A DNA stretch of 32,000 nucleotides from Alkalilimnicola ehrlichii MLHE-1 (GCF_000014785.1 NC_008340.1:2700001-2732000), one strand, 5' to 3'; counted from the first letter of the stretch, positions 10,722 to 26,254 are shown. A program made the numbers and translations. Notes: generated from the sequence alone by a model not told the origin.

Positions 10722-10723
10722 GG

Positions 10724-12766
10724 CTACTCCGCCTCCACCGCCTGCTCGGCGACGGCGGCGAAGGGCGCCAGCCATTGCCGCACCCGCGCGCGGAGCTCCT
10801 CGTCCTCGGCGATCCGATCGGCGATGGCCGGGCTGAAGTGGTAATAGAGGCTGACCAGCTCCTGCCCGGCACGGCTGGTCAGCAGGGCCTCGTCGCGGAA
10901 CTGGCGCAGGGTGGCCACGGGCGCATCCCATTCACTGCCCCAGGCGGCGGTGGCAATGAAGCAGCCGCCACCTCCGCCACCACCCCCAGTGCCGTTGTCT
11001 CCGTCCGGGGCGCCGTTGTCGCCATTGCCGTTATCGTCGTTGCCGTTGCCGTTGTCGTCGTTGCCGTTGCCGTTGTCGTCGTTGCCATTGTCGCCATTGT
11101 CGTCGCTGGTCGCCACGTAGCTCGCCGAACCCGAGCAGGCGCGCACACTGGCCCGCTCGGCGCAGACCCGGTAGGTGATGGTCTCGCCCTCGTCCAGTGC
11201 CGGGGAGACGACGGCCTCCTGGTCCCCGCTCTCCAGGGTGACCCCGCCGGTGGCCTGGAAGTCGGCGTCCGCATCGTCGCAGCCGTCGCCCTCGCAGTGC
11301 TCCAGCGCCAGCGCATCGAGCTGATAGCTGTTGTTCAGCCAGGTCAATTCCAGCTCCGAGGTATCGGGCAGCGGGTTGATCCGCAGCCGGCTCGGGGCGA
11401 AGGGCGGCAGACCGGCCAGGTCGACGGTGAGGGCGTCGTAGGCGTTCACGATGCCGCCGGTGGCGGTCAGCCCCTCCCAGTCCGGGCTGGCATTCAGCCG
11501 GGCGGACATCAGGAGGCGCTCCCGCACCGCCTGGTAAGGGGTATCGACGCCGTGCTGGGCCAGCACCAGGCCGGCGATGCCGACCACGTGGGGTACAGCC
11601 ATAGAGGTGCCCGAACGGAATTCGTAGGGGTCTGGCCGGTCCGGCCGGTCCACCACGGCACTCAGGATATCAACGCCGGGCGCGGCCAGGTGGACGTCGG
11701 TCTCCCCAAAATTGGAGAAACTCGCGCGCTCGTCGTCCTCGTCTGAGGCCGCGACCGAGATGATGTTGTCCAGCCGGTAACTGGCCGGCCAGAAGCCCGT
11801 CGGCTCGTCCGATTCCGTGTCATTCTCCTCACCCGCGTTCCCCGCCGCGGCCACCACCAGGACCCCCTGCTCACCGGCTGCCCGCAGGGCCGCCTTGAGG
11901 GTGTCGTCCTCGCCGTCATCCCGGAGCGGACTTTCATCGGTGCCGAAACTGGCGTTGATGACCCTCACCCCTTCATCGACCAACGCCTCCACGGCCGCAA
12001 TCACGTCGGCAAAGGACCCTTCGACCCGGTTCGGGCCAGCGACCTCCAGCGCGGCGTGGCTGTACAGCGAGACCTGGAGATTCACGCCGGCCACCCCCTC
12101 CCCCTCAGCCGCGATCACGCCGGCGACATGGGTGCCATGATCCTCCGGCTGAGAATCGTCGAACTGGGAACCGGTCCCCGCCACGTTCTGCTGCAGATCG
12201 GGATGGGCCGTATCGATCTCGGTGTCCACCTGGCCCAGTCGCACCGCCGGGTCACCGGTGGTCAGGTCCCAGGCCTGCGGCACATCGATGGCCGGCAGGT
12301 TCCATTGCTGGTCATAGAACTCGGGCTCCGGGTCGAGCTGGGCGGCGTAGACCCGGTAGTTGGGCTCGACATAGGCCACCGCCGGGTCCTCGGCGTAGGC
12401 GGCGATGGCCTCCTCCAGGCTCATCCAGGACGGCAGCCGAACATGCTCCGCGTTACCGGTGCGAAAGCGCCGGACCACATTGGCGCCCACCAGGGCATGA
12501 GCCGCCCGCATACGCGGCTCGGTCTCCGCCGCGTCCCCGGCCGGCCGGATCAGCAACTCCCCCGGCACACAGCAGTCCGGGTTGTCCCGGACCGTCTCGA
12601 TCAGGGTGCGGGCCGAAGCCGGCAGGGCCGCCAACCGCTCCGCTGAGAGCGCGGCCACCCGCCGGTCGTCCTCCGGCGGTTCCAGGCCTCCGCTCAGCAG
12701 CGGGGGCAGCAACAGTGCCGCGACCAGCGCGGCGGCCATCCATGCAGTGAAGAGGCGCATCTTCAT
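10724..12766 (-). CDS. secreted subtilisin-family (S8) serine protease with I9-like propeptide, Asp/Asn/Gly repeat linker and CFIATAAWG C-terminal module
   Basis: 680 aa with a signal peptide (MKMRLFTAWMAAALVAALLLPPLL). Catalytic motifs are VDTEIDTAHPDL (Asp), HGTHVAGVIAA (His), AAAGNAG (oxyanion Asn) and SGTSMAVPHVVG (Ser). The tail reads G8-CFIATAAWGSEWDAPVATLRQFRDEALL...YYHFSPAIA. Confidence 0.9.
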   Translation of the reverse strand: MKMRLFTAWMAAALVAALLLPPLLSGGLEPPEDDRRVAALSAERLAALPASARTLIETVRDNPDCCVPGELLIRPAGDAAETEPRMRAAHALVGANVVRRFRTGNAEHVRLPSWMSLEEAIAAYAEDPAVAYVEPNYRVYAAQLDPEPEFYDQQWNLPAIDVPQAWDLTTGDPAVRLGQVDTEIDTAHPDLQQNVAGTGSQFDDSQPEDHGTHVAGVIAAEGEGVAGVNLQVSLYSHAALEVAGPNRVEGSFADVIAAVEALVDEGVRVINASFGTDESPLRDDGEDDTLKAALRAAGEQGVLVVAAAGNAGEENDTESDEPTGFWPASYRLDNIISVAASDEDDERASFSNFGETDVHLAAPGVDILSAVVDRPDRPDPYEFRSGTSMAVPHVVGIAGLVLAQHGVDTPYQAVRERLLMSARLNASPDWEGLTATGGIVNAYDALTVDLAGLPPFAPSRLRINPLPDTSELELTWLNNSYQLDALALEHCEGDGCDDADADFQATGGVTLESGDQEAVVSPALDEGETITYRVCAERASVRACSGSASYVATSDDNGDNGNDDNGNGNDDNGNGNDDNGNGDNGAPDGDNGTGGGGGGGGCFIATAAWGSEWDAPVATLRQFRDEALLTSRAGQELVSLYYHFSPAIADRIAEDEELRARVRQWLAPFAAVAEQAVEAE
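11018..11104. repeat. In-frame 21-bp tandem repeat (about 4 copies) inside the S8 protease gene
   Basis: gttgccgttgccgttgtcgtc occurs at 11039-11059 and 11060-11080, with degenerate copies on either side. It encodes the DDNGNGN repeats of the linker. Confidence 0.9.
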
Positions 12767-13401
12767 CGGTCGTTCTCCTTGCGCGGGAGGGCGAAAAGCC
12801 GGGTCACCGCCCCGGTGTGCTCCGCTTCCAGTTCAATCTCGACGGCGAGGGGCAGGTCCGCATTGGGCTGCTCCGGTGGGGGCCAGGCCCGGCTGGTGGT
12901 CCGCTCCCCGTCCAGGCCATGGTAGTGGAAGACGAAGGCGAGTACCTCCACGGTGTTGCCGGCCACCTCCCCCAGCATGGGCACCCGGCTTTGCGGCTCA
13001 TCCATGCCGCCGTCCACGGTGGGCCAGAGCAGCCGGTAGAGCACGCCGTCCTCCAGCTCCCAACCCACCCGTCGCAGCTCCGAGCGCACGCCGCGACTGC
13101 GCGCGCCAGCGCTCACCAGTTCCAGCCGCGGGGGCAGGCGCAGGTCGTCGAGCATCAGCCCGGGGCGGCGGTCGCCGTAGGCATCGCGCCGGGGCCGGTC
13201 CACCACCTGGTGCAGATCCCGCTGCAGCATGGCGAAGGCCAACTGCATCTCATCCAGTCGCTCCGCGGCCCGGTCGGTGTGCGCCCGGGCGTCCAGCACC
13301 GAGGTGAGGCCGCCGTAGGCCATGGCGGCCAGCAGGGAGAAGACCGCCATGGCCACCAGCAGCTCCAGGAGGGTGAAACCGCGCGACCGGTCAGAGGCCA
13401 T
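12763..13401 (-). CDS. gspJ: type II secretion system minor pseudopilin J
   Basis: The internal ATG at 13399-13401 gives MASDRSRGFTLLELLVAMAVFSLLAAMAYGG, a prepilin cleavage/methylation motif G-FTLLE. It is 212 aa and lies between gspI and the protease gene. Confidence 0.85.
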   Translation of the reverse strand: MASDRSRGFTLLELLVAMAVFSLLAAMAYGGLTSVLDARAHTDRAAERLDEMQLAFAMLQRDLHQVVDRPRRDAYGDRRPGLMLDDLRLPPRLELVSAGARSRGVRSELRRVGWELEDGVLYRLLWPTVDGGMDEPQSRVPMLGEVAGNTVEVLAFVFHYHGLDGERTTSRAWPPPEQPNADLPLAVEIELEAEHTGAVTRLFALPRKENDR

Positions 13402-13840
13402 CGAAGCCCCCCTCCTCCAGGTCATCGATCGTCCCCAGGCGGCCCCCCTCCGGGACCAGCACCACGCGGGCGGTGGCCAGGGGCTGTTGCTCGCGCGCCT
13501 GGTCGCGGTGGACCGCCACCTCCAGCCGGCGCAGCCCCGGGATGCCCGGCAGGCCCTCCAGCTCCGGCGCCCAGGGCGCCATCGTCGCCCGCCAATGCCA
13601 GTCGCGCCCGCCGAGACGCTCGACGCCTTCGGCGGGGCCGGACTCGGGCAGTGCCTCCAGCCGCGCCTGGAAGCGGTTGAGCTGATTGGCAGCCACCCAG
13701 TGGGCATGGGTCCGGTCGCGCAGATAGGCGGCGTTGGCGGCGTTCTCGCTGGCCACCTTGACGGCCGCGCCCAGGGCGGTGGCCAGGATGGCCAGCGCCA
13801 CCAGCACCTCCAGCAGGGTAAAGCCCCGTTGCCTAGCCAT
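13391..13840 (-). CDS. gspI: type II secretion system minor pseudopilin I
   Basis: The internal ATG at 13838-13840 gives MARQRGFTLLEVLVALAILATALGAA and the GspI-like block AYLRDRTHAHWVAANQL. It is 149 aa. Confidence 0.85.
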   Translation of the reverse strand: MARQRGFTLLEVLVALAILATALGAAVKVASENAANAAYLRDRTHAHWVAANQLNRFQARLEALPESGPAEGVERLGGRDWHWRATMAPWAPELEGLPGIPGLRRLEVAVHRDQAREQQPLATARVVLVPEGGRLGTIDDLEEGGFDGL

Positions 13841-14375
13841 CGGGCGCCTCCGTGTGCAGGCGCAGGCGCCCGGCCATGTCACCGGTGACGACCCGGATCC
13901 GGTCCGGGTCGCGCTGATCGCGCAGCGTGAGCTGGAACTCCGTCACCTCGCCGGTCCCATAGAGGTAGAGGTGGGGGTCGGGCTGTTCGGGCCGGTAGTC
14001 CAGGCGGACGTCCACGCCCTCCAGGCGCAACGCCAGTTCCATGTCCTCCGGCTCCAGGTCGCGGGGCCGGAGCTGGCGGTCGCGGTCCACCGGCAGCCAG
14101 GTGGTGAGGCCGTCCTCCACCTCCACCTCGTGCAGGAAGTGGTAGCCGTGCCGGGTCACCCCCACGGCCAACTCCGGGCCGCCGAGCATGACCTCCTGGC
14201 GGGCGAGGTCCACCAGGCTGATGAAGCGCCGGGCCTGCTCCTCCAACTGGCGGTCGCGGCCGCCATCGCCCACGGAGAGCACGGCGAGGCCGGTGAGCAA
14301 CCCCAGGATGATGATGACCGCCAGCAGCTCGAACAGGGTGAAGCCGGCGCTGGCCTTGGCGGGGCGGGGCATCAT
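13833..14375 (-). CDS. gspH: type II secretion system minor pseudopilin H
   Basis: 180 aa. The N-terminus AGFTLFELLAVIIILGLLTGLAV is a prepilin motif. It lies between gspG and gspI. Confidence 0.8.
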   Translation of the reverse strand: MMPRPAKASAGFTLFELLAVIIILGLLTGLAVLSVGDGGRDRQLEEQARRFISLVDLARQEVMLGGPELAVGVTRHGYHFLHEVEVEDGLTTWLPVDRDRQLRPRDLEPEDMELALRLEGVDVRLDYRPEQPDPHLYLYGTGEVTEFQLTLRDQRDPDRIRVVTGDMAGRLRLHTEAPDG

Positions 14376-14381
14376 CCGGCG

Positions 14382-14816
14382 TCAGTCCAGCGCCCAGTTG
14401 CCGATCTCCGCGTTGACGCCGGAGCCCCCCGGCTGACCGTCGGCACCGTAGCTGAAGATGTCGATGTCGCTGTGCTCGCCCGGGTTGAGGTATTGGTAGT
14501 CGTTGCCCCAGGGGTCCTTGGGCAGCCGGTCCAGGTAGCCGCCCTCGCGCCAGTTGCGCGGCTCGGGATTGCCGGTGGGCCGCTCCACCAGCGCCTCCAG
14601 GCCCTGGTCGGTGCTGGGATAGACGTTGTTGTCCAGGCGGTAGAGGTTGAGCGCGGACTCGATGGCGCGGATATCGGAGCGCGCCTTGCTGATCCGGGCG
14701 TCGTCGGGACGGTCCATGATCCGCGGCACCACGATACCGGCGAGGATGCCGAGGATGACCACCACCACCATGATCTCGATGAGGGTGAAGCCGCTTTGCC
14801 GTTGTCTAGCCATCAT
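14382..14816 (-). CDS. gspG: type II secretion system major pseudopilin G
   Basis: 144 aa. [34 protein letters not shown] plus the conserved blocks [33 protein letters not shown] and [16 protein letters not shown] lies upstream. Confidence 0.95.
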
Positions 14817-14845
14817 GCACTGGGACTCCTCAAGGGGTTACGGGC

Positions 14846-14899
14846 GCCACTATTGCGCCAACTGCCACTATTGCGCCAACTGCCACTATTGCACCAACT
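14846..14899. repeat. 18-bp tandem repeat x3 spanning the gspF stop codon and the gspF-gspG spacer
   Basis: gccactattgcgccaact occurs at 14846-14863 and 14864-14881, and gccactattgcaccaact at 14882-14899. On the coding strand each copy carries an in-frame TAG. Confidence 0.9.
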
Positions 14900-16100
14900 G
14901 ATTGAGTTCGAAGACCGGCAACAGGATGGCAAGCACGATCACCATGACCACGCCGCCCATGAGCAGGATCAGCAGCGGCTCGAACAGCCCCAGGAACATG
15001 CCGGTGAGGCTCTCCAGCTCCCGCTCCTGGTTCTCCGCCGCCCGGTCCAGCATCTGCTCCAGCTTGCCACCGGCCTCGCCGCTGGCGATCAGGTGCACGG
15101 TGATGGGCGGGAAGTAGCCGGTCCGTTCCAGGGCGTGGGCCAGACCGCTGCCCTCGCGCACGCGCCGGGCGGCCTCCTCCACCCCGCGCCGCATGGGGTC
15201 GTTGTTGACCACCGCGCCGGCCACCCGCAGCGCCTCCAGCACCGGCACGCTGCTGGCGGTGAGGATGCTCAGGGTGCGGGCAAAGCGGGCGGCGTTCACC
15301 CCCCGGGTCAGGCGCCCGATCAGGGGCAGTCGCAGCAGCAGGCTGTGCAGGGCGTAACGGGGCCCGGGCCGGCGCAGGATCCGGGCCAGCACCAGCAGCC
15401 CCACGATACCGCCGATCAGGCCGTAGAGGGCATAGTCGCGCATGAAGTCGCTGGTGACGATCAGCGACTGGGTGAGCAGCGGCAGATCCTGACCGATGTG
15501 GTCGAACACCCCCACCACCTCCGGCACCACGTAGGTGAGCAGGGTGAGGGTGACGCCGATGGCCATGACCGTGAGGATGATCGGGTAGAACAGCGCCATC
15601 TGCACCTTCTGGCGCATCTGCTGGCGGCCCTCGGTGTATTCCGCCAGCCGCTCCAGCACGATGTCCAGGTGGCCGGACTTCTCGCCGGCGGCTACCGTGG
15701 TGCGGTAGATATCGGGGAAGACGTGGGGGAAATCGCCCAACCCCTGGGCCAGGGTGTGACCCTCCAGCACGCGGTTGCGCACCGCCAGCATCAGGCTCTT
15801 GAGGCGGGGCTTGTCGGTCTGCCGGGAGACGGTGCGCAGGACGTCCTCCAGCGGCAGGCCGGAGCGCACCAGGGTGGCCATCTGGCGGGTGATCAGGGCC
15901 AGATCGGTGGCGCTGACCCCGCGGGTGAACAGCGGCCGGCGCACCGCACGCGCCTCCCGCTCCACCACGGCCTGCACGGCCAGGGGCGTAAGCCCGCGGT
16001 CGCGCAGTTGGGCGCGGACGTGACGCGGGGTGTCCCCCTCGAGCACACCCTTGCGCTGGCGGCCGCCCGGATCCAGTGCCTGATACTCGTAGGCGCCCAT
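14886..16100 (-). CDS. gspF: type II secretion system inner-membrane platform protein F
   Basis: 404 aa. MGAYEYQALDPGGRQRKGVLEGDTPRHVRAQLRDRGLTPL is the typical GspF N-terminus. Two repeated T2SSF domains and three TM segments are present. Confidence 0.95.
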   Translation of the reverse strand: MGAYEYQALDPGGRQRKGVLEGDTPRHVRAQLRDRGLTPLAVQAVVEREARAVRRPLFTRGVSATDLALITRQMATLVRSGLPLEDVLRTVSRQTDKPRLKSLMLAVRNRVLEGHTLAQGLGDFPHVFPDIYRTTVAAGEKSGHLDIVLERLAEYTEGRQQMRQKVQMALFYPIILTVMAIGVTLTLLTYVVPEVVGVFDHIGQDLPLLTQSLIVTSDFMRDYALYGLIGGIVGLLVLARILRRPGPRYALHSLLLRLPLIGRLTRGVNAARFARTLSILTASSVPVLEALRVAGAVVNNDPMRRGVEEAARRVREGSGLAHALERTGYFPPITVHLIASGEAGGKLEQMLDRAAENQERELESLTGMFLGLFEPLLILLMGGVVMVIVLAILLPVFELNQLVQ

Positions 16101-16258
16101 GCCCTATGCCTCGCCGGCCTCCCTGGCCCGTGGTGGTTCGCTGTGTGTGCTCATTCAGCGCAGGATACCCCACCCTGCGGCGGACCGTGAAGCGGCCTGA
16201 CGGCCCTGCCGCGGTGGCCAGCCACGGCCTTGGGATATGATGGCAGGGGAACGGACGC

Positions 16259-16738
16259 ATGCCGGTGGCGATAGGGGGCGATGGCTTGCAGGCGAACCCG
16301 CTGTACCCATTCAAGGATTGGTTGTTTCTGGCCGCACTGGCCGCCGGGCCGGCCGGGGCGCTGGCCTGGGTGATATTGACCGGGGAGCGGGCCGGCGACG
16401 GCAACCTGCTGACGCCCTGGCCCCTATTGATGCTGGTGGTGGTCTACCCGGTGCTCGAGGAGCTGGCCTTCCGCGGGTTGATTCAGGGGCTGCTGCTGCG
16501 TCCGCACTGGGGCCGTTACCGGGCGGGCCCGGTGAGCCTGGCCAATGCCCTGACCACCCTGGCCTTCGCCCTCAGCCACTGGCCCCGCGGCGGGGCGCTG
16601 CTGGCGCTGGGGGTGATCCCACCGGGGCTGATCTTCGGGTACTTCCGGGAGCGGCACGACGGGCTCTGGAGCCCGATCCTGCTCCACGGCTGGTATAACC
16701 TCTGCGTGATCACGGTGACGGCGACCTGGCCCGCCTGA
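16259..16738 (+). CDS. CPBP-family (CAAX protease / Abi) glutamic-type intramembrane protease, minimal 159-aa form
   Basis: Polytopic membrane protein with all three CPBP motifs: EELAFR (E67,E68,R72; gag gag at 16457-16462), FALSH (F103,H107) and HGWYN (H143,N147). It is divergent from gspF and convergent with the tagged CLCA-like gene. Confidence 0.85.
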   Translation: MPVAIGGDGLQANPLYPFKDWLFLAALAAGPAGALAWVILTGERAGDGNLLTPWPLLMLVVVYPVLEELAFRGLIQGLLLRPHWGRYRAGPVSLANALTTLAFALSHWPRGGALLALGVIPPGLIFGYFRERHDGLWSPILLHGWYNLCVITVTATWPA

Positions 16739-16763
16739 GCGGGCGCCGCGGGAAGAAACAAGC

Positions 16764-16787
16764 GGCCGGCGGGGGATCCCGCCGGCC
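16764..16787. terminator. Perfect 10-bp GC hairpin between convergent genes (possible bidirectional terminator)
   Basis: ggccggcggg (16764-16773), loop ggat, cccgccggcc (16778-16787). On the minus strand it is followed by the T-rich cttgtttcttcc. No clear T-tract follows on the plus strand. Confidence 0.45.
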
Positions 16788-16822
16788 GGTGGGTGGGTTA
16801 AGGGGGCCGGGGCCCCGCGCGC

Positions 16823-16951
16823 TCAGGCGCGGTGGCGACGACGGCCCAGGATGACGCCGAGCAGGGCCAGGATGGCCAGCAGCGGCAGGGTCGGGTCGGC
16901 GGGGCCACCGGCACTGTTGCCCGCCACGCTGCAGGCGGAACCCCGGCGGGT
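16823..16951 (-). other. C-terminal sorting tag copy 1 (TRRGSACSVAGNSAGGPADPTLPLLAILALLGVILGRRRHRA)
   Basis: Tripartite tail preceded by an acidic run (DEDEEEFEM): Cys-containing motif, hydrophobic helix, Arg cluster at the extreme C-terminus. It matches the tail at 20826-20954 at 31 of 42 residues. Confidence 0.8.
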
Positions 16952-19741
16952 CATCTCGAACTCCTCCTCATCCTCGTCCGTGATCCGGTCCGGTTCCGCG
17001 GGCTGGTCCGAGCTGATCACCGAGCCGGCGCTGACCTTGTAGGTGCCCTCGTCGGCGGTCTCATCCTCATGCTCGACCGTGACCACCAGGTCCTGCAGCT
17101 CCGCACCGCCAACCATACCTTCGTCATTGGCGGTCTCCAGCCAGTCCCGATCCAGGACGGTGTAGAGGTAGCCGTTGCGGGCGACGAAGTCCTCATCGTC
17201 CAGGCTGAAGGTCAGCAGCACCTCGCTGCCATCGCCGGTGTAGATCGTCACGATGGGCTGCATGCCCAGGCCAAAGGATGCCACCCGCAGAGAGACATCG
17301 CCCTCGTCCGGGACGCTGGTACCGACCAGGCGGAAGCAATCCCTATCGCTGGCGGCATCGATCCGCCCCGGGATAGTCGTGTTATCGGCCTCGAGCGGCG
17401 TGCAGGCGCCCGGCAGGGCGGGATCATCCGCGTGATCGTCGTCCTGAAAACCATCCACGGTGAACTGCGTGGTCGCCACGCGCTGGAAGTTCTCCGGGAT
17501 CGGCTCCGGATCCGGGGCCTGCACCTCCATGCCATTGATGTCCGGCGCCGGGGCCACACCCCCGTACACGAACTGGCCGGTCCCGGCCTGGTTGTCCACC
17601 CGGACGCGCAGCTCGTGGGTACCACCCTGCCGGTAGTTCACCACGGCCGAGTAGATGCCATCACCGGCCTCCGCGTCACCGTTCTGGCCCTCGTCGTTGA
17701 GCGGCACGGTGGTGACGTTCCCGTCGGGATCGGTCAGCTCGGCGACCACATTGACCCCCGAGACCATCCGCCCGGCGGAGATCGCGGCCGAGATCAGCGC
17801 GGGTGACGGGTATTCCACCGTGCTGCCACCCAGGGTACTGACCCGCACGTCAAAGGTCCGACCGTCCGCCGGGTTGGCCACCACATTCAGGAGCACCTCC
17901 ACTTCACCGCCGGAGGTATTCTCCCCGGTGTCGACGGTCCAGTCGCCGACGCCACCCGCCGATACCGCGTCGCGGTCCACGGTGGCGAGGCAGGAGACCT
18001 CATCGGCTGACTCGTCGCAGCTGAACGGGATTCCGGTGTCGTTGCCGTCACTGTCCAACAGCGTGGGGGACAACTGGTCGGCACTGCCGGTGAAGTTAAG
18101 GAGCACGGTCATCGAGCCCAGGGTGGGGTCCACGGTGAAGGTGAGCCGCTCGTTGGCGCCCGCAGCGACCGGCTGCGACTCCTGACTCAGGTTGACCGCA
18201 TCGGACACGGCGGCGTTGGCCGCCAGGAAGGCCTCCTGGATCTCGGCCAGGGTCGTGGGTGAGGCGAAGAACTCACCGCCGGTGTTATCGGCGAGCCGCC
18301 GCAACACCCCGGTGGGTGCGAAGCTGCCATAGCCGAAGGCGATGATGGGGACGTTGGCATCCTGGTAGGCCTGGACGGTCTGCGGCTCTGTCGCAGCGGA
18401 GCTGTTGTCGCCACCATCGGAGAGCAGGAAGGCCACCTGCCCGGCATCGGTATCGTTGGCGGCGCTGTAATCCTGCAGTTCGTCCAAGCCCAGTATCAGG
18501 CCATCGAACATGGCGGTCAGCCCGGAGGCCGGGAGGCTGTCGATGGCGTCCTTGAGCTGGTCCTTTTCCGCCGTACCCGGGTCCGGGATGGCGATCATGG
18601 GGTGGACCACCGAGGCACTCGCCGAGAAGCGCACGACGCCCATGGCGGTACGGCCAGGCTCGACCACATCCACCAGGGTCCGACCGGCTGTGCGGGCGTT
18701 GATGATGGGAGCGCCGCTCATGCTCCCGGAGGTGTCGACAATGAGCGAGATCTCCAGGTCATCGTCCATCCAGACGATCTCCAGCTCATCGCGGCAACCG
18801 TGATCCATCTGATCGAGCTGGGTGACCACCCAGTTATCCGCCGCCGTCGGCGCCACGGCCTCCAGGGCCGTATACCGGGTCCGGTCAGGCTGAACGGTCT
18901 CGTTACCCTCCTGTGGATCGTCGGTGGTGGGTTGGACCAACACCTCCCAGCCGCTCTTGCCGTAGACCCGGCCCTGGGCGGTATCCTCCGGATCGCCGAT
19001 GTTGTCACTGGTGGAGTGGTTCAACCACTCGTAGTTACCGCCGCGGGCCTGCCACTGGCTGTTCATGATGGCCGGGCTGGTGGGCACATCGCCAACCTGC
19101 GGGAAGGTATCGCGATTCTCCGCCGGGTCGCGCCCCTCGTACTCATCATACAGGGCAAGCACGTAGTGGCCCCACTCGTGCCCCAGGGTGTAGCCGGCGC
19201 CCTCGGCATCGGCCAGCATGTCGTAGTCGCAGCCATTACCGCAGCCGTCGGGGAAGATATCCCCCATCCAGATGTGCCGCCCGGCACTGCCGAACCCCGC
19301 GATACTGGCCCGCGGCCACTCCTCCTCGTTCCAGATAATGTCGGCCCGGGAGCCGTGGCCGCCGTTGGTGAAGACCCGCACGGTACCGAGCTGGCTGGCC
19401 CCGTTGCTCTGCTCGCAGACCGAGTCGGCGAAGTGTTCGATCACGGCCTCGTAGGGATCCCGCTCGTTTTCGGTCTCCGGGTTGTTGTGCAGGGAAATGG
19501 TGATATCGAAGACGGTCGTGCCGGCGTCCGTGGAGGCCCCCACCACCCGGTCGCTGCCCGCGGCGGTGAGGCCCTGGGCGCTCGCCGGGGCCGTATCGGC
19601 ACCGATCCGCGCCTTGGAGAACCAGGAATCCCCGGCGGAGAGCGGTGCGCTGATCATGGCGGCGCTGAGGCCGGCGCAGAACAGCCCGGTGTACCAGGAC
19701 CGCCGTTTCTCGACATGGCGGTCGACGTGTCTGATGTTCAT
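16823..19741 (-). CDS. secreted CLCA-like zinc metalloprotease - VWA domain - PPC domain protein with C-terminal Cys/TM/Arg sorting tag
   Basis: I chose the ATG at 19739-19741 (AGGAAGAGGAG upstream; MNIRHVDRHVEKRRSWYTGLFCAGLSAAMISAPLSAG signal peptide), giving 972 aa. HEWGHYVLALYDEY (HEWGH encoded at 19166-19180) matches the CLCA-type HExxH...DEY metallohydrolase motif. VWA MIDAS residues are present (DTSGSMSG, GLTAM, LSDGGDN). A pre-peptidase C-terminal-like domain follows (GRIDAASDRDCFRL). For the tail, see the tag feature. Confidence 0.85.
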   Translation of the reverse strand: MNIRHVDRHVEKRRSWYTGLFCAGLSAAMISAPLSAGDSWFSKARIGADTAPASAQGLTAAGSDRVVGASTDAGTTVFDITISLHNNPETENERDPYEAVIEHFADSVCEQSNGASQLGTVRVFTNGGHGSRADIIWNEEEWPRASIAGFGSAGRHIWMGDIFPDGCGNGCDYDMLADAEGAGYTLGHEWGHYVLALYDEYEGRDPAENRDTFPQVGDVPTSPAIMNSQWQARGGNYEWLNHSTSDNIGDPEDTAQGRVYGKSGWEVLVQPTTDDPQEGNETVQPDRTRYTALEAVAPTAADNWVVTQLDQMDHGCRDELEIVWMDDDLEISLIVDTSGSMSGAPIINARTAGRTLVDVVEPGRTAMGVVRFSASASVVHPMIAIPDPGTAEKDQLKDAIDSLPASGLTAMFDGLILGLDELQDYSAANDTDAGQVAFLLSDGGDNSSAATEPQTVQAYQDANVPIIAFGYGSFAPTGVLRRLADNTGGEFFASPTTLAEIQEAFLAANAAVSDAVNLSQESQPVAAGANERLTFTVDPTLGSMTVLLNFTGSADQLSPTLLDSDGNDTGIPFSCDESADEVSCLATVDRDAVSAGGVGDWTVDTGENTSGGEVEVLLNVVANPADGRTFDVRVSTLGGSTVEYPSPALISAAISAGRMVSGVNVVAELTDPDGNVTTVPLNDEGQNGDAEAGDGIYSAVVNYRQGGTHELRVRVDNQAGTGQFVYGGVAPAPDINGMEVQAPDPEPIPENFQRVATTQFTVDGFQDDDHADDPALPGACTPLEADNTTIPGRIDAASDRDCFRLVGTSVPDEGDVSLRVASFGLGMQPIVTIYTGDGSEVLLTFSLDDEDFVARNGYLYTVLDRDWLETANDEGMVGGAELQDLVVTVEHEDETADEGTYKVSAGSVISSDQPAEPDRITDEDEEEFEMTRRGSACSVAGNSAGGPADPTLPLLAILALLGVILGRRRHRA

Positions 19742-19823
19742 TGCGTTCTCCTCTTCCTTCTTTCGCCTTTGCTCAACAGAATCTGCTCCCTGCTTGTTGG
19801 CTACGTCCTGTTCGATCAGTCGG

Positions 19824-20627
19824 TCAGTGCCGTTGGAAGATCTGGACCAGACCCGATGCCTCCCCCACGGCGGCGCGATAGGCACGCCCCGGTTCTATTC
19901 CGAGGCCCGCGAGATCGTCCGTGCCACAGGGGGCGAGGGGCACAAAGCGGCCCGGGTTGGCCTCGGCCTCCTGCAGCTCAGGGTGGTCAGCCAGGGTGTC
20001 TGCCGAAACCGCCACCTGGGGCGACCGGCGCGCGCCCTCCGGCGCGGGCAGAAATTGGAGGTAATGACCCTCCGGCTGTTCAGTGAGGGACACCTCAGCG
20101 GTCAGTACCTGGAGCGCATCGGCCAGCGCCGCGAGGGCCTCAGGCAACGCCTCAGGCTCCCCGCTCCCGATAAAGCGCTTGCCCGCCGGGCTCCGATAAG
20201 CGAAGTACAGCCGTGTCGGCCGGAAGTCGGAGATAGGCCCGTCCGCTTCCGGTCGGGCCAACGTGTGATCGCCGGTGAGGTACTGCGAGAGGGCGTGGAA
20301 TCGCGCCGGTGCAATGCGACCGGAACGCACCTCCGGAAGGGCGCCATCCGTGCGGTAGTGGGCCGTCTGGAGTCGACCCGCGGCATCCAGGCGCACGGTA
20401 TGGCCGTCGGTATGGCGGCCACCCAGCCCCCCTTCAATGCGGGCCATGTAAACGAAGGCCGCCCCGGGTACGCCGCCATCGGCGTGCACCGGGGCCACAG
20501 GCAGTCCAACCGCGGCCACCAGGCCCAGCATCACCCCCAGGGCCAGCCCCACACACCACCCCCTGTCGGGGAAGCGGTGCAGCCGATTCGGATCCGTTGG
20601 AGTGATCAGGCACATGGTTACCGCCAT
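19824..20627 (-). CDS. hypothetical secreted/periplasmic protein
   Basis: Start chosen at the ATG at 20625-20627 (GGAGAGG upstream); the ATG at 20613-20615 is an alternative. N-terminal hydrophobic segment GWCVGLALGVMLGLVAAVGLPVAPVHA. I recognise no domain. It lies between the two tagged cargo genes. Confidence 0.55.
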   Translation of the reverse strand: MAVTMCLITPTDPNRLHRFPDRGWCVGLALGVMLGLVAAVGLPVAPVHADGGVPGAAFVYMARIEGGLGGRHTDGHTVRLDAAGRLQTAHYRTDGALPEVRSGRIAPARFHALSQYLTGDHTLARPEADGPISDFRPTRLYFAYRSPAGKRFIGSGEPEALPEALAALADALQVLTAEVSLTEQPEGHYLQFLPAPEGARRSPQVAVSADTLADHPELQEAEANPGRFVPLAPCGTDDLAGLGIEPGRAYRAAVGEASGLVQIFQRH

Positions 20628-20825
20628 TGGCCTCTCCGTTCCGCAATCTGCAGGCACGCAAAGCGCATCACCACACTCTGCGAGCCGCAGCTGGGCATCC
20701 CTGCAGCCAGCCCCACAATCCAGCGGAGGGCGGGGTGCGCCAAACGAGGTCTACGCACCGACCGCCTCATCCCTAAGGTGGTCGGCGCGCAGCCCGGGAA
20801 CCTCCTTCAAGTCGTCAGCGTGACT

Positions 20826-20954
20826 TCAATCTGCGCGACGGCGACGGCCGACCAGGGCGCCGAGCAGGGCCAGGACGGCCAGCAGCGGCAGGGTCGGGTC
20901 GGCGGGACCCGCCGCACCGGTACCGGTCACGCTGCAGGCGGAGCCCCGGCGGGT
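20826..20954 (-). other. C-terminal sorting tag copy 2 (TRRGSACSVTGTGAAGPADPTLPLLAVLALLGALVGRRRRAD)
   Basis: Same tripartite tail after an acidic run (DDPDDEEHE). Nucleotide blocks 20859-20909 and 20928-20955 match 16856-16906 and 16925-16952 with 2 and 1 mismatches. Confidence 0.8.
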
Positions 20955-22676
20955 CCGTTCATGCTCCTCGTCGTCGGGGTCGTCCACCACGCCGTCCAAG
21001 GCCTGGGCAAGGACCGTGTTGCAGTCACTCTCGTCGGTGGTCACCGCGAGCCCCTGGAAGACCTCAGACTCGTCGTCATCGTTGGCCCGCATCTCCACCT
21101 CGATCTGCACATAGCGGCCCTCGACGCCATCCGGCAGCGGCTCTCCGGGCGTGAAGACCTGGAAAGGGGCGGCTTCCAGGGCCTCGAGAGAGTCTGCGGC
21201 ACGGATGCGGTAGGTACTCTCCGCGTTCTCGGGGGACTCGGTGATGCTGACGCAGCTATCGGCCCAGACGTACTCCGGAATGTCCTCCTCCTGGGTTCCA
21301 CCCACCTGAGCCGCGGCCACCGTGCCGCCGCCGGCCGCGCCGAGCACCTCTCGCACGTGGCCATCGACAATGATCCGGCCGATGCCCGTGCGACGCCCGA
21401 GGCCCCGGGTACCCAGGCCCGTCGCATCGCTATAGGTGTAGGGCCCGGCACCGGAGAGGAAGACCCCGAGGGGCTCGCCATCCTCGCCGCGGTACTTGGA
21501 CAGGCGGTCATGATTGACGTGAATGGCCCAGACATCGCCGTTGGCGTCCAGCACCACGCCACGCACATGCCCGGTGTCCTCCTGCGCCGGGGACTCCCAG
21601 ATCAGATCGCCATCGGGGGTGTATTTGGCCACGCCCCCGGCAGAGGAGTCGCCCACCACGACATTGCCGTCGGGACCGTAGGCGATCCCCAGCACGCTCA
21701 TGTTGTCGTCACTGGGGTCATCGAACTCCTCCGTTGCCTTATTGAAGCGAATGAAGGGGTTAACGCCCAAGAAGACGTAGTCGTCGGAAACGGCAATCCC
21801 GTAATTGGACCCGAACCCTGAATGACTGTGTCTGGCCACCCACTCCCCGGTGTTGGTATTCAGCTGGCCCAGGTCACTGCCGAGGGCAGCACTCCAGAGC
21901 ATCCCGTCCCCATCCACCAGACAGCCATAGGGGGTATGGCCTTCCGTGTCGATTGGCCCCTGCAGCACCTGACCGGTGTCGCTGTCCAGCTGGTAGTAGG
22001 CCTGCCCCCTGTACATGCCCAGCCAGATCTGACCGTCGTTGTCGATGCACAGCGAGCGCCCCAAGTCGTTGTCATTGCCCACGGTGACGTGCCAGGCGAT
22101 CCGGTCGTCCTGCAGGTCCTCCGGATCCACCCGGCCGGTGTTGTTGGTGTCCTCCAGGGGCATCATCTCGGTGTCCGGGTCGATCATCCCCTCGCCATCC
22201 TCGTTGCGCGAGGTGTTCACCTGGCCGTCGCCCGCGTGGTCCACCGCCTCTTCATTCAGGATCTTGAGCACGGCGGGCGGCCGTCCGTCAAAGTGGCGGT
22301 TGGCGACATAGACATTCCCGCGGCTGTCCACCGCGGTACGGGAGGGCGCGGGGCCACCCCACGGGGAGCTGCTGGCCTGCTCGGGGAAGAAGGTCCAGTA
22401 GCGCGCCAGTTCCACCCCGGTGTTGGTGTCAATCTTGGACACCGAGGCCTCACCGGCATTGGCGACCCAGATGATGGGGAAGGTGGAGACCTCCTCGCTC
22501 ACCCGCATGACCCCATTATCGAACAGCAGCCCATTGTGCGTGCCGTTCTCTTCGATATCCTGGGGCAAGACCACGATACCTGCACCGTGACTCGCTGTGC
22601 TAGCTGCCAGCAGCAGGGCGCCCACGCTCGCACCCAGGCCAACCCGGCCAACCCGATTCTTGATTAACGGTTTCAT
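20826..22676 (-). CDS. secreted beta-propeller repeat protein with the same C-terminal Cys/TM/Arg sorting tag
   Basis: Start chosen at the ATG at 22674-22676 (GAGGAGG 6 nt upstream). Signal peptide MKPLIKNRVGRVGLGASVGALLLAASTASHGAG. Blade-like repeats are present (DSRGNVYVAN, IDNDGQIWLG, VDGDGMLWSA, GPDGNVVVGD, TPDGDLIWES, LDANGDVWAI), resembling NHL or Vgb-lyase-type propellers. For the tail, see the tag feature. Confidence 0.8.
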   Translation of the reverse strand: MKPLIKNRVGRVGLGASVGALLLAASTASHGAGIVVLPQDIEENGTHNGLLFDNGVMRVSEEVSTFPIIWVANAGEASVSKIDTNTGVELARYWTFFPEQASSSPWGGPAPSRTAVDSRGNVYVANRHFDGRPPAVLKILNEEAVDHAGDGQVNTSRNEDGEGMIDPDTEMMPLEDTNNTGRVDPEDLQDDRIAWHVTVGNDNDLGRSLCIDNDGQIWLGMYRGQAYYQLDSDTGQVLQGPIDTEGHTPYGCLVDGDGMLWSAALGSDLGQLNTNTGEWVARHSHSGFGSNYGIAVSDDYVFLGVNPFIRFNKATEEFDDPSDDNMSVLGIAYGPDGNVVVGDSSAGGVAKYTPDGDLIWESPAQEDTGHVRGVVLDANGDVWAIHVNHDRLSKYRGEDGEPLGVFLSGAGPYTYSDATGLGTRGLGRRTGIGRIIVDGHVREVLGAAGGGTVAAAQVGGTQEEDIPEYVWADSCVSITESPENAESTYRIRAADSLEALEAAPFQVFTPGEPLPDGVEGRYVQIEVEMRANDDDESEVFQGLAVTTDESDCNTVLAQALDGVVDDPDDEEHERTRRGSACSVTGTGAAGPADPTLPLLAVLALLGALVGRRRRAD

Positions 22677-22740
22677 TTCCATCCTCCTCAGCAAACCGGT
22701 GGAGCGGCCCCGTTCAGGGCCCCGCCCCGCCCCAAGTTAG

Positions 22741-23805
22741 TCACTGCCCTGTGCGGGGCGAATGCATGTATGCGGGCTGCGCAAACACCAGCGACGGCTC
22801 CGCACCATCGACCCGACCGCGAAACAATTCCGCTGCACCGCCCTTTTGCGACACGAAGACAACCTCCCCCCCATCATTTGGCAGCCAGACCGGCTGAGCC
22901 AGCTGTCCGTCAAGGGTGGCGACCGTTACCGGTCGGCCGTCATCGGGGAAGCGGGAGGCGTAGATATTGGTCTTGGTCTCCTCCGGAGCGGGGGTCGCCG
23001 TGGAGGCATAGACGAGCCAGTCCCCGTCGGTGGACCAAACCGGGAAACCCCGTACGTTGCCCGGGGCGGACGCGACCTGCTCCGAGTGGCCCTCCTGAAC
23101 GTGCAACACGTAAAGTTGCACCTCGCGGCGGTTATCGGTGGAGGCGGTATAGGCCAGGTAATCGCCGCTGGGGTGCCAGGCGAGGGACTGCACATTCCCG
23201 GCATGCCGGTCATTGGGCACCAGGATACTGTGCCCGTCGTCCTCAAGATCGATCACCATGATGGCATTGCCACCCTCGCCCCCGGGCCGCGCGATGACAG
23301 CCAACTGCCCCCCATCCGGCGACCAACGCAGGGCCTCCGGAGAACGCACCGCCTCGCTGAGCAACCGCGCCTCCCCGGTGGCCAGGTCCAGTAGGAAGAC
23401 CCCGCGCGGACTGACCCGGCTGGAGGTGAAGGCGAGATAATCGCCGGAGGGGTGCCACTGGGGCATGAAGTCCATGCGCTCGCTGTGGGTGAGACGTTGC
23501 TGGTTGCTGCCGTCTGCGTCCATCAGGTAGATATCGCCGTTGCCGTCCCGCCGGGAGACAAAGGCAATCCGCTGGCGGTCAGGCGACCAGCGCGGGTCCA
23601 TGTCGGAGTGGGCCGGATCGGTCAACCGGACAATCGCGCCATCATTAAGACTGGCCGAGTAGATGCTCTGTGCCCCTTCCTGGTTGGAGACGAAGAGCAC
23701 GGCCGCGTCATCAGGCTTATCGTCCGCCGCCAGGGCCATACCCGGCAGGACCATGAGCCCGACCAGGAGGCCCAACCACCCTTGTTTGCGCTTACTCACT
23801 AACAA
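22741..23805 (-). CDS. periplasmic TolB-like PD40 (WD40-like) beta-propeller protein
   Basis: Signal peptide (KRKQGWLGLLVGLMVLPGMALA) followed by PD40-type repeats (PRWSPDRQRIAFVSRRDGNGDIYLMDADGSNQQRLT, PQWHPSGDYLAFTS, LRWSPDGGQLAV, LAWHPSGDYLAYT, PVWSTDGDWLVYAS). The track ORF starts at a TTG (23803-23805); a GTG at 23797-23799 is equally plausible. It overlaps the upstream small gene. Confidence 0.75.
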   Translation of the reverse strand: MLVSKRKQGWLGLLVGLMVLPGMALAADDKPDDAAVLFVSNQEGAQSIYSASLNDGAIVRLTDPAHSDMDPRWSPDRQRIAFVSRRDGNGDIYLMDADGSNQQRLTHSERMDFMPQWHPSGDYLAFTSSRVSPRGVFLLDLATGEARLLSEAVRSPEALRWSPDGGQLAVIARPGGEGGNAIMVIDLEDDGHSILVPNDRHAGNVQSLAWHPSGDYLAYTASTDNRREVQLYVLHVQEGHSEQVASAPGNVRGFPVWSTDGDWLVYASTATPAPEETKTNIYASRFPDDGRPVTVATLDGQLAQPVWLPNDGGEVVFVSQKGGAAELFRGRVDGAEPSLVFAQPAYMHSPRTGQ

Positions 23806-24551: not shown

Positions 24552-26099
24552 CTATTCCTCGCGGGTGACCCGCAGGACCTCCTCGACAGAGGTCTCGCCG
24601 GACAGCACCCGTCGGACGCCGTCGGCCCGGATGCTGGGGGTGAGGGTGCGGGCGTGGTGCTCCATCTGCTGCTCGCCGGCGCCGTCGTGGATCATGGTGC
24701 GCAGGGTTTCGTCCAGGGCGATGATCTCGTAGATGCCGGTGCGCCCCTGGTAGCCGGTCTGATGGCAGGCGTCGCAGCCGACCGGGGCGTGCAGGGTGGG
24801 TGGGTGTTGCGGGTCCAGGCCCAGCAGTTCGCATTCCGTGGCATCGGCGGTGTAGGGCTGGCGGCACTCCGGGCAGAGCAGCCGCACCAGGCGCTGGGCC
24901 ATCATGCCCAGCATACTGGAGGAGAGCAGGTAGGGTTCCACGCCCATGTCGCGCAGACGGGTGACCGCACCGATGGCGGTGTTGGTGTGGAGGGTGGAGA
25001 GCACCAGGTGGCCGGTGAGGCTGGCCTGGACGGCGATCTGTGCGGTCTCCAGGTCGCGGATCTCGCCGATCATGACCACGTCCGGGTCCTGGCGCAGGAT
25101 GGCGCGCAGGCCGCGGGCGAAGGTCATGTCCACCTTGGTGTTCACCTGTGTCTGGCTGACCCCGTCCAGGTAGTACTCGATGGGGTCCTCCACCGTCATG
25201 ATGTTGCGCTGCCGGTCGTTGATCCGGCTGATCGCGGCGTAGAGGGTGGTGGTCTTGCCCGACCCGGTGGGGCCGGTGACCAGCAGGATGCCGTGCGGCT
25301 TGTTGACCAGATCGGCCATGCACCGCAGGGTCTTCGGCTCCATGCCCAGGTGGGTCAGATCCAGCCGGCCGGCCCGCTTGTCCAGCAAGCGCAACACCAC
25401 GCGCTCGCCCTGCCCGGCCGGCAGCGTGGAGACCCGCACGTCCACGGCGCGGCCGGCCACCCGTAGGGAGATGCGGCCGTCCTGGGGCAGGCGCTTTTCC
25501 GCGATGTCGAGCTCGGCCATGACCTTGATGCGGGAGGTGAGCAGCGGGGCCAGGCCCACCGGCGGCTGCAACACCTCGCGCAGCACGCCGTCCACCCGGA
25601 AGCGCACCGTCATGCGGTGCTCGAAGGTCTCGATGTGGATGTCGGAGGCGTCCTCCTTGATGGCCTCGGTGAGCAGCGCGTTGATGAGGCGGATGATGGG
25701 CGCATCATCCTCGCTCTCCATCAGGTCCTCGGGCTCGGCCAGTTGCTCGGCGACGCTGTGCAGGTCCAGGTCGTCGCCGAGGCCGGCCATCATCTCGGCC
25801 GCTTCACCGGCGCTGCGCTCGTAGCACGCCTGCAGGTACTGGTTGAAGGTCTCGTCATCCACCTCCTCCAGGGCCAGCGGCCGCCCGAGCTGGCGGCGCA
25901 GTTCCACCAGGGCCTGGGGGCTGACGTCGGCGCGGCAGGCGATGCGGGCCGCCGCGTCGCTCCAATCCAGCGGCACGGCACCGTGGCGCCGGGCCCAGTT
26001 GAAGGAGACCGGACGGTGCTCCGAGACCGTGGGCGGCGGCCCCTCACCGCCCTGCAAGGCATCCAGTTGTTCGTCCACCGCGCTCATGGTCGGCAGCAT
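24552..26099 (-). CDS. gspE: type II secretion system ATPase E
   Basis: 515 aa. Walker A GPTGSGKTT, Asp box and Walker B (DPDVVMIGEIRD), His box (TGHLVLSTLHTN) and a tetracysteine motif (CPECRQ...C-DACHQTGYQGRTGIYE). The N-terminal GspE N1/N2 domains are present. Confidence 0.95.
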   Translation of the reverse strand: MLPTMSAVDEQLDALQGGEGPPPTVSEHRPVSFNWARRHGAVPLDWSDAAARIACRADVSPQALVELRRQLGRPLALEEVDDETFNQYLQACYERSAGEAAEMMAGLGDDLDLHSVAEQLAEPEDLMESEDDAPIIRLINALLTEAIKEDASDIHIETFEHRMTVRFRVDGVLREVLQPPVGLAPLLTSRIKVMAELDIAEKRLPQDGRISLRVAGRAVDVRVSTLPAGQGERVVLRLLDKRAGRLDLTHLGMEPKTLRCMADLVNKPHGILLVTGPTGSGKTTTLYAAISRINDRQRNIMTVEDPIEYYLDGVSQTQVNTKVDMTFARGLRAILRQDPDVVMIGEIRDLETAQIAVQASLTGHLVLSTLHTNTAIGAVTRLRDMGVEPYLLSSSMLGMMAQRLVRLLCPECRQPYTADATECELLGLDPQHPPTLHAPVGCDACHQTGYQGRTGIYEIIALDETLRTMIHDGAGEQQMEHHARTLTPSIRADGVRRVLSGETSVEEVLRVTREE

Positions 26100-26254
26100 A
26101 ACCCACGGGGGTGGGCCGGTGAAGCCGGCCCTGCGACAACTCGCTGCATGTCCGCTGCAACCGGTCGTGGTTCAATTACAATTGGAATTGCGACATTGTT
26201 TAATGTTCGCGCGGACATTTCCCATCACGCGGCTATTGAGCCAGGGGTACCAAG

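Follow-up and report, generated by a model that had tools for sequence, protein, structure and literature searches.

The window analysed here, a stretch of 32,000 nucleotides from Alkalilimnicola ehrlichii MLHE-1 (NC_008340.1:2700001-2732000), carries on its minus strand, at 16823-19741, a gene whose 972-aa product resembles the CLCA proteins of animals. The best explanation of the data, which we consider probable, is that this CLCA-like protein is a Sec-exported metzincin of the CLCA type that carries a VWA domain with a complete metal ion-dependent adhesion site (MIDAS), two CLCA-like β-sandwiches, a further β domain and a JDVT-CTERM sorting tag, and that it is delivered through a type II secretion system (T2SS). 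Observed sequence features, domain homologies, fold class and gene context underlie this description. The original prediction for this gene, drawn from the DNA sequence alone, had likewise proposed a bacterial CLCA-like metalloprotease with a VWA domain that is displayed on the surface via the T2SS. Its first part is supported by the hhalign, TIGR00868 and BLASTP matches described below. Delivery by the T2SS is supported by the JDVT-CTERM tail, the adjacent gene for the intramembrane protease MrtJ and the surrounding gsp operon; surface display is the outcome predicted from that context.

Gene identity and prior description

The gene was delineated by reading its open reading frame (ORF) and motifs. 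The minus-strand ORF extends over 16823-19885; the chosen start is the ATG at 19741, with AAGAGGAGAACGCA directly 5' of it. An intrinsic terminator-like hairpin of 11 G-C pairs and a T-rich tail (16763-16788, minus strand) lies just 3' of the stop codon. A promoter scan of 16000-23000 found no sigma-70-like site, a null result that is uninformative because the DNA is 67% G+C.

Its product shows 100% identity to 'vWA domain-containing protein [Alkalilimnicola ehrlichii MLHE-1]'. In 2013, Lenart et al. (PLoS One 8:e62272; PMC3650047) reported about 10 prokaryotes with CLCA proteins, A. ehrlichii MLHE-1 among them, and found that the proteobacterial CLCAs repeat the metazoan domain architecture. 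They described a CLCA_N-like domain, a VWA domain, a DUF1973-type β domain and the motif HExxHxxxGxxDEY. Entry gi_114321541 of their supplementary alignment contains the strings DSWFSK-ARIGADTAPASA, RADIIWNE, LYDEYEGR and PTSPAIMN, and we identify it as the window protein because these strings are shared. Since gi 114321541 was aligned as a bacterial CLCA in 2013, the central claim had already been published: the CLCA-like identity is correct, but has been known since then and is a re-discovery. The JDVT-CTERM tag and its protease were likewise described as a pair in 2023 (Haft; 10.1101/2023.06.07.544157). What is added here is the embedding in a T2SS operon, the modularity of tags and sorting proteases, an upstream partner gene and the size of the family; the extra interest of these additions is modest.

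Domain organization

The protein comprises the following features, given with window coordinates, strand and residues.

19631-19741 (-), aa 1-37: predicted Sec signal peptide (basic n-region, hydrophobic stretch YTGLFCAGLSAAMISAPL, then SAG followed by DS)
19607-19627 (-), aa 39-45: conserved motif SWFSKAR at the predicted mature N-terminus
18767-19534 (-), aa 70-325: metallohydrolase domain (metzincin, CLCA_N-like; hhalign, Foldseek and AlphaFold2 (AF2)), hereafter the N-domain
19139-19180 (-), aa 188-201: zinc-binding motif HEWGHYVLALYDEY (H188, E189, H192, D199, E200, Y201; sequence and homologs)
19064-19066 (-), aa 226: M226, candidate Met-turn Met in a P-S/A-I-M-N motif, invariant in 91 homologs
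18206-18757 (-), aa 329-512: VWA domain with complete MIDAS (Pfam VWA, E 8.6e-14)
17867-18196 (-), aa 516-625: first β-sandwich, corresponding to the CLCA β-sheet-rich (BSR) domain (TIGR00868, BLASTP to CLCA1, weak GBD_Hemicentin match)
17447-17851 (-), aa 631-765: second β-sandwich, with a choice-of-anchor X motif at aa 679-715 (GDGIYS) and a loop at aa 718-752
17012-17419 (-), aa ~775-910: C-terminal β domain, termed 'PPC-like' in the original prediction, folded with high predicted local distance difference test (pLDDT) values
16826-16945 (-), aa 933-972: JDVT-CTERM sorting domain (NF033191, 36.5 bits; cut-off 27)

The full-length AF2 model had a pLDDT of 89 and a predicted template modelling score of 0.89. 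HEWGH, the zinc motif and the MIDAS strings were all found where the original prediction had placed them. The motifs are not a chance pattern, given the VWA score, the MIDAS alignment, the tail score and the conservation of the zinc-binding residues.

The N-terminal metalloprotease domain

HEWGH comprises aa 188-192 and is encoded at 19166-19180. H188, E189, H192, D199, E200 and Y201 are kept in at least 90% of 91 homologs, and their conservation, together with that of M226, argues for a maintained catalytic site. The extended motif HExxHxxxGxxDEY is present in HEWGHYVLALYDEY, with Ala at the position where the family consensus is Gly. HEWGHYVLALYDEY aligns to HEWAHLRWGVFDEY of CLCA1 with identical spacing. 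The original prediction had stated that HExxH followed by DEY defines the CLCA family. The motif is indeed present and necessary, but it is not sufficient because it is common to the M64 igalysins.

To compare the N-domain with its animal counterparts, an alignment of bacterial N-domains was matched by hhalign against a metazoan CLCA_N alignment built from a search seeded with human CLCA1. The CLCA1 query was confirmed directly over residues 302-477 only, where it is 100% identical to PDB 6pyo; its 78% identity to pig CLCA is a further, indirect check, and its numbering agrees with the residues given in a cryo-EM preprint (10.1101/2025.10.18.683246). The match had a probability of 94.6% and an E-value of 7.2e-8 over 66 columns. 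It runs from the ADVVWN strand via G.G..I to GYTLGHEWGHYVYGLYDEY, which pairs with GRVFVHEWAHLRWGVFDEY, and so covers core strands and the active-site helix. The alignment ends at DEY, where animal CLCAs have a Cys-rich insert, which accounts for the break. Aligned alone, the post-DEY halves were colinear but marginal (P 0.035): in this weak alignment P..SIM..Q, with M226, pairs with the Met-turn SIM238 of CLCA1, NH with H255-N, and SGWEVL with STWEVI. Searches with a hidden Markov model (HMM) against sequences, in both directions between the bacterial N-domain and CLCA_N, gave 24-30 bits.

The Pfam profile check proposed in the original prediction gave a divided result: VWA matched, while the CLCA N-terminal model, PF08434, did not. 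Among 23 family members, 18 matched PF08434, all sub-threshold (best E 1.5e-5), and relative P0093 reached 25.3 bits against a gathering score of 25.6.

In the full-length model, pLDDT was mostly above 90 over aa 70-325. As full-length Foldseek searches were dominated by VWA matches, the N-domain was re-predicted alone (pLDDT 84). Its matches in the PDB were metzincins only (MMP-9/12/13, ADAMTS4 and karilysin), and were weak (E ~2e-3, probability at most 0.99). Since CLCA1 has itself been placed among the metzincins (10.1101/2025.10.18.683246), the objection that the N-domain belongs to a different metalloprotease clan, which the original prediction had named as a potential refutation, fails. 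Overall, these data support the N-domain as a probable metzincin, homologous to metazoan CLCA_N over the catalytic core, as judged from sequence and predicted fold.

Upstream of the catalytic domain, aa 1-29 had low pLDDT, and the signal peptide is predicted to be cleaved between SAG and DS. SWFSKAR has the family consensus S-W-[FL]-S-[KR]-[AV]-[RH] and is followed by a variable linker of 20-35 residues before the catalytic domain. Within the motif, aa 43-45 form a short strand (pLDDT 72-84). SWFSKAR may act as a short pro-segment, contribute an added strand or serve as a determinant of secretion.

Two other family assignments were considered and rejected. PF09471 scored 12.5 bits against 26 over 30 residues, and the region 90-100 residues after HExxH, where M64 peptidases have the three cysteines of a second zinc site, contains no Cys. 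The CLCA_X consensus of Lenart et al. 2013 is HExxHxxxD; the sequence here is HEWGHYVLA, in which the residue four after the second His is Ala (Gly in the family), followed by DEY as in CLCA_N.

The VWA and β domains

The MIDAS strings are DTSGSMSG (aa 336-343), GLTAM (aa 407-411) and LSDGGDN (aa 440-446). In human CLCA1, D312/S314/S316, T383 and D412 are the one-to-one partners of D336/S338/S340, T409 and D442, in agreement with the complete MIDAS that had been claimed. By Foldseek, the domain superimposes on the CLCA1 VWA structure 6pyo with a template modelling (TM) score of 0.83 and 24-26% identity, the highest identity among the VWA matches.

Homology to CLCA1 continues beyond the VWA domain. 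BLASTP aligned aa 331-714 to residues 307-676 of human CLCA1 (399 columns, 26% identity, E 5e-12); this segment ends at GDGIYS, opposite DDGVYS, and a second colinear segment falls on the zinc motif. TIGR00868 (hCaCC) matched aa 331-721 to model positions 307-686 with an E-value of 8.1e-22. The second β-sandwich aligns with CLCA1 as far as residue 676, and its choice-of-anchor X motif scored 49.6 bits on NF041940 (cut-off 25). The loop at aa 718-752 is long, conserved and confidently modelled (pLDDT 93-97), and follows the strand aligned to CLCA1 670-676. By analogy, it is positioned like the inhibitory/self-cleavage loop of CLCA1 and may be equivalent to it.

A Pfam scan of the full protein returned VWA alone. 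The 'PPC-like' label was not confirmed: Pfam gave no match at E ≤ 1 on aa 765-930, and a DVUA0089-family match was sub-threshold (E 0.041; 14.3 bits against 29). No Pfam match to fn3 was found in the A. ehrlichii protein, which thus lacks the fibronectin type III (FnIII) domain; some relatives, such as P0032, have fn3. Together, the data support a protein that is predicted to work like a CLCA and that is a member of the broad CLCA_N-related family sensu Lenart et al. It is not an equivalog of the animal CLCAs, because it lacks the Cys-rich insert, the second zinc site and FnIII, and falls short of the curated thresholds.

JDVT-CTERM tail, MrtJ and the gsp operon

The tail and its surroundings include the following features.

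16259-16738 (+): mrtJ, CPBP/Rce1-like glutamic intramembrane protease (NF033192, 101.4 bits, cut-off 75; Pfam Rce1-like, E 2.9e-18)
20826-22694 (-): second JDVT-CTERM client, a β-propeller (NHL / Vgb-lyase-like; NF033191, 33.7 bits, cut-off 27; Pfam)
24552-31264 (-): T2SS genes gspE (24552-26099), gspD (28254-30275) and gspC (30272-31264)
7327-16100 (-): T2SS genes gspF (14886-16100), gspH (13833-14375), gspJ (12763-13707), gspK (9903-10931), gspL (8603-10114), gspM (8112-8606) and gspN (7327-8223)
10724-12766 (-): S8 subtilase between gspJ and gspK, with a fervidolysin-like prodomain and a CFI-box-CTERM GGGGGGGGCFIATAAWG... (83.7 bits, cut-off 40)

The original prediction had read the Cys/TM/Arg end of the protein as a sorting tag, and its JDVT-CTERM score bears this out. 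The tail, RRGSACSVAGNSAGGPADPTLPLLAILALLGVILGRRRHRA, has a single Cys937, D949-P950, a Leu-rich transmembrane segment LPLLAILALLGVILG and RRRHR. mrtJ is convergent with the CLCA-like gene and ends 84 bp from the stop codon of its client. The catalytic motifs of MrtJ are intact: EELAFR (EExxxR), FALSH (FxxxH) and HGWYN (HxxxN). The gene for the second client is found ~1 kb upstream of the first, and the two tails are 78% identical at the nucleotide level. The window thus holds two JDVT clients inside 4 kb. A six-frame regular-expression search of the window for other such tails gave these two real ones and two out-of-frame matches, which we rejected as noise.

Haft 2023 (10.1101/2023.06.07.544157) defined JDVT-CTERM and MrtJ as a pair on the basis of gene adjacency and phylogenetic profiles, took Rce1 as the model for predicting that cleavage follows a modified Cys, and reported that JDVT-CTERM clients usually occur once per genome. 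For a related system there is experimental support: MYXO-CTERM is cut by MrtX, and its clients reach the surface through the T2SS (PMC11980579). In the window, the JDVT clients and mrtJ are embedded in the gsp operon, with gspC, gspD and gspE on one side and gspF, gspH and gspJ to gspN on the other. A JDVT client and MrtJ inside a T2SS operon provide direct genomic support for coupling of the JDVT system to the T2SS. The two clients and the T2SS embedding are small additions to the Haft preprint. Since several CLCA-like homologs end in GGGGCF[IV], the CFI-box of the subtilase may also serve to sort cargo of this class.

Further genes lie among or beside the gsp genes. A TolB/PD40-like β-propeller protein with a signal peptide and no sorting tail is encoded at 22741-23805 (-), between gspE and the JDVT β-propeller gene; it may be another T2SS cargo. 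A 631-aa ORF between gspE and gspD (26255-28150, +) begins like a lipoprotein (LALAGCSSSSSSG) and matched nothing in Pfam or NCBIfam. Downstream of gspN, and oriented as it is, a 272-aa ORF (6512-7330, -) likewise matched no family.

Predicted route and activity

The biochemical steps proposed here are modelled on the precedents of CLCA1, Rce1, MrtX and VesB. After Sec export, the C-terminal JDVT helix would keep the precursor in the inner membrane, where Cys937 would be modified, probably by lipidation, and the adjacent MrtJ would cut off the transmembrane/Arg tail. The surrounding T2SS would then move the folded protein over the outer membrane, leaving it surface-attached or partly released. 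Outside the cell, the HEWGH...D(E)Y zinc site and the M226 Met-turn would cleave an extracellular protein substrate, which the VWA MIDAS may help to bind. By analogy with CLCA1, the enzyme may be latent via the loop at aa 718-752 and be activated by self-cleavage.

Family size and relatives

A profile search with the N-domain identified 950 clusters (represented at 50% identity) with E ≤ 1e-3, of which 339 reach E ≤ 1e-30. The N-domain is often internal to very long proteins, and about 100 full-length relatives have the protease-VWA-β architecture. Named sources and a genome scan show relatives in Pseudomonadota (Shewanella, Pseudoalteromonas, Paraglaciecola, Robiginitomaculum and Rhodobacterales) and Desulfobacterota (Desulfosarcina and Electrothrix), and likewise in Verrucomicrobiota, Chloroflexota, Actinomycetota, Planctomycetota, Holophagales and Sumerlaeia, such that the family spans at least five phyla. 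Because the bacterial family is large and spread over several phyla, the term 'eukaryote-style' used in the original prediction is questionable. For the same reason, the case of Lenart et al. for transfer from animals, made from a patchy distribution, no longer looks secure.

The relatives carry diverse C-termini. Two homolog tails matched GlyGly-CTERM (22.2 and 17.7 bits; cut-off 15.5) and one IPTL-CTERM (29.6 bits; cut-off 20.5). Some had Gly-rich/transmembrane/Arg tails just under the VPDSG and MYXO cut-offs, and others ended in GGGGCFI 'CFI-box' sequences or in dockerins. Among the homologs, JDVT-CTERM was carried only by the A. ehrlichii protein. In three Pseudomonadota contigs (loci L007, L009 and L010) the homolog adjoins T2SS genes, and its neighbour in L010 is a rhombosortase (TIGR03902, 134.6 bits, cut-off 84; L010 8982-10766 (-) next to L010 6001-8769). 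The combination of a T2SS, an intramembrane sorting protease and a CLCA-like cargo therefore recurs, with exchangeable pairs of tag and protease.

A conserved upstream partner gene

Immediately upstream of the CLCA-like gene lies a conserved gene that we term the partner.

19824-20657 (-): partner gene, on the strand of the CLCA-like gene and 82 bp upstream of it; the 277-aa product has a hydrophobic segment at its N-terminus

The partner protein has no Pfam or NCBIfam match. An HMM built from the unannotated ORFs at the equivalent position in L003, L005, L006 and L007, with the window copy left out, found the window ORF at E 2.7e-8, while the next best of 205 ORFs had E 0.2. With the window protein added, the HMM also found upstream ORFs in L010, L013 (Verrucomicrobiia), L014 and L019 (Anaerolineae). 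Copies outside the window are as follows.

L003: 7145-7963
L005: 2856-3722
L006: 2987-3955
L007: 3111-3836
L010: 3363-4190
L013: 8856-9833
L014: 5457-6431
L019: 8828-9859

In total, partner-type ORFs, encoding proteins of ~240-320 aa with a hydrophobic N-terminal segment, lie upstream of a CLCA-like gene in nine loci, which represent at least three phyla; the loci named are from Pseudomonadota, Desulfosarcina, Verrucomicrobiia and Anaerolineae. Only in L010 is the partner separated from the CLCA-like gene, by a transposase gene; in the other eight loci it directly precedes that gene. A PDB profile search with the partner family returned nothing meaningful (lectin PLL2, E 0.31). The partner product is a candidate chaperone or inhibitor, or may be a co-secreted partner. 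The Shewanella upstream ORF (L001 7422-7943) was also considered and is not detectably related to the partner family.

The window's left flank (892-5841) is taken up by common metabolic genes, for FabI, a phosphate acetyl/butyryl-transferase fusion, MscS and a class I PHA synthase, which are apparently unrelated to the secretion cluster.

Alternative explanations

Several results weigh against a T2SS-delivered, CLCA-type protease. PF08434 did not match the A. ehrlichii protein even at E ≤ 10, and the only N-domain Pfam match at that threshold was a weak one to Peptidase_M64 (E 0.07-0.08, 30 residues). The hhalign match to CLCA_N covers only 66 columns and ends at DEY, the alignment beyond DEY is marginal, and the TM-scores of the N-domain in Foldseek are low (0.3-0.4). 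The CLCA1 structures compared in the PDB (6pyo and 6pyx) are of the VWA domain only, which limits comparison of the N-domain. The Cys-rich insert and second-zinc cysteines of CLCA1 have no counterpart in the A. ehrlichii protein, and its TIGR00868 score of 76.8 bits is far under the cut-off of 900.85. About 26 of the 30 homolog loci have no T2SS genes within 10 kb. Bacterial CLCA-like proteins, MrtJ and JDVT-CTERM processing, moreover, are known from sequence alone.

The N-domain might instead be an M64 igalysin-like or generic bacterial metzincin that was joined to a VWA domain independently and resembles CLCA by convergence. HExxHxxxGxxDEY is common to M64 and CLCA, Peptidase_M64 is the sole Pfam match of the N-domain, a PDB profile search with the N-domain returned M64 IgA proteases only (E 0.3, at the level of the motif), and 17 of the 23 relatives match M64 weakly. 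However, the M64 matches cover only 26-47 residues around the motif, while the CLCA matches are stronger (best E 1.5e-5 vs 1.8e-3) and extend over upstream strands. No M64 structure was among the top 50 Foldseek matches of the N-domain, the three M64 second-zinc cysteines are absent, and the homology to CLCA runs colinearly through the VWA and two β domains, which M64 proteins lack. Convergence is therefore quite improbable. Lower still do we rate the scenario of Lenart et al. 2013 (PMC3650047), in which the gene is a recent xenolog from an animal and 'eukaryote-style' is literally true. It would account for the multidomain order shared with metazoan CLCAs and for the patchy distribution over ~10 prokaryotic strains known at the time. 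Against it stand the 950 clusters (339 at the stricter threshold) and ~100 full-length relatives in many phyla, the G+C content of the gene (0.66-0.67, the same as its surroundings), the integration of exclusively bacterial features (partner gene, sorting tags and T2SS), the absence of the animal Cys-rich insert and the identity of only 26% to human CLCA1.

Two further alternatives concern what the protein does and where it ends up, and we consider both unlikely. It may be mainly a surface adhesin or ligand-binding receptor, acting through the VWA MIDAS and β-sandwiches, with a protease that is inactive or used for self-processing only. The MIDAS is complete, relatives carry adhesin-type modules (cadherin-like, Big_9, FG-GAP and dockerin), MYXO-CTERM clients include adhesins as well as hydrolases (PMC11980579), and mammalian CLCA1 acts partly via VWA-mediated binding after self-cleavage. 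Yet the catalytic and zinc-binding residues and the candidate Met-turn Met are conserved family-wide, which argues for maintained catalysis; the two roles are compatible. Alternatively, the protein may be a freely released, soluble exoprotease whose JDVT tail is only a transient hold in the inner membrane and not a lasting surface anchor. Consistent with this, the T2SS releases TraA that lacks the tag, and part of the TraA and VesB is extracellular (PMC11980579); lipidation of the JDVT Cys is a prediction in the literature only. By contrast, the invariant Cys and an Rce1-like protease dedicated to the tag resemble the processing of CAAX and MYXO-CTERM proteins, whose outcome is a lipidated C-terminus, and in homologs anchoring falls to other tags, for example GlyGly-CTERM and IPTL-CTERM.

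Implications

We tentatively suggest, as one possible history, that the bacterial CLCA-like proteins, rather than being sporadic xenologs from animals, are a large, old, multi-phylum family of secreted metzincin-VWA proteins that travels with the upstream partner as a two-gene module. In Pseudomonadota, they would be dedicated T2SS cargo with interchangeable pairs of tag and protease (JDVT/MrtJ here, rhombosortase elsewhere). Animal CLCAs would then derive from a bacterial ancestor and have gained the Cys-rich insert and FnIII later. The partner gene and the family size bear on this question of origin. A bacterial, Cys-poor CLCA-type protease could also serve as a tractable model in which to study how CLCAs catalyse and stay latent, questions still debated for human CLCA1 in mucus disease.

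Comparison with known systems

The cryo-EM preprint cited above (10.1101/2025.10.18.683246) places CLCA1 in the metzincin clan as a 'CLCAsin', nearest to ADAM/ADAMTS and M64, and describes its inhibitory/self-cleavage loop and mechanism. The A. ehrlichii protein shares with CLCA1 the spacing of the zinc motif (HEW[AG]H, six residues, DEY), a candidate Met-turn SIM followed by an S[TG]WEV[IL] helix, the VWA MIDAS, and BSR and inhibitory-domain regions that are colinear up to DDGVYS/GDGIYS. An N-terminal pro-domain of the classical size is absent from both. The two differ in that CLCA1 carries, after its active-site helix and before the Met-turn, a Cys-rich 'thumb' that the A. ehrlichii protein lacks, having no cysteine in aa 202-316; the distance from the first zinc-motif His to the Met-turn Met is 82 residues in CLCA1 and 38 here. 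Of the second zinc site of CLCA1 (E168, C187, C250 and H255), the only counterparts are E200 and H242, C187 and C250 being absent. The extra β domain and bacterial sorting tag are in turn found in the A. ehrlichii protein and not in CLCA1.

The M64 igalysins (Thomasclavelia ramosa IgA protease, 9ekk; 3P1V) share HExxHxxx(x)LxDEY and the metzincin clan. The likeness is confined to the motif: M64 has a cysteine triad that is missing here, and M64 proteins are without the VWA or CLCA β domains.

The bacterial CLCAs of Lenart et al. 2013 include the same protein (gi 114321541). That account, written before JDVT-CTERM and MrtJ were named, does not mention its signal peptide or transmembrane tail. 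The transfer from metazoa that it proposed was based on ~10 strains, compared with the much larger family found now.

The JDVT-CTERM/MrtJ system (NF033191 and NF033192) is the same here, in that the tail and the CPBP protease beside it exceed their curated cut-offs and the single Cys, DP motif, Leu-rich helix and Arg cluster are shared. It departs from the usual pattern in the position of DP (+12 from Cys instead of +9), in having two clients within 4 kb where one per genome is typical, and in its location inside a gsp operon, a link to the T2SS that the Haft preprint does not report. The tag and protease classes of VesB/GlyGly-CTERM/rhombosortase (Vibrio cholerae) and TraA/MYXO-CTERM/MrtX (Myxococcus xanthus) differ from those of the predicted JDVT system. 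Their logic is the same as that proposed here: a hydrolase or adhesin that is exported by Sec and bears a tripartite C-terminal tag is cut by an intramembrane protease and displayed on the surface in a T2SS-dependent manner. A homolog of the CLCA-like protein itself adjoins rhombosortase and T2SS genes.

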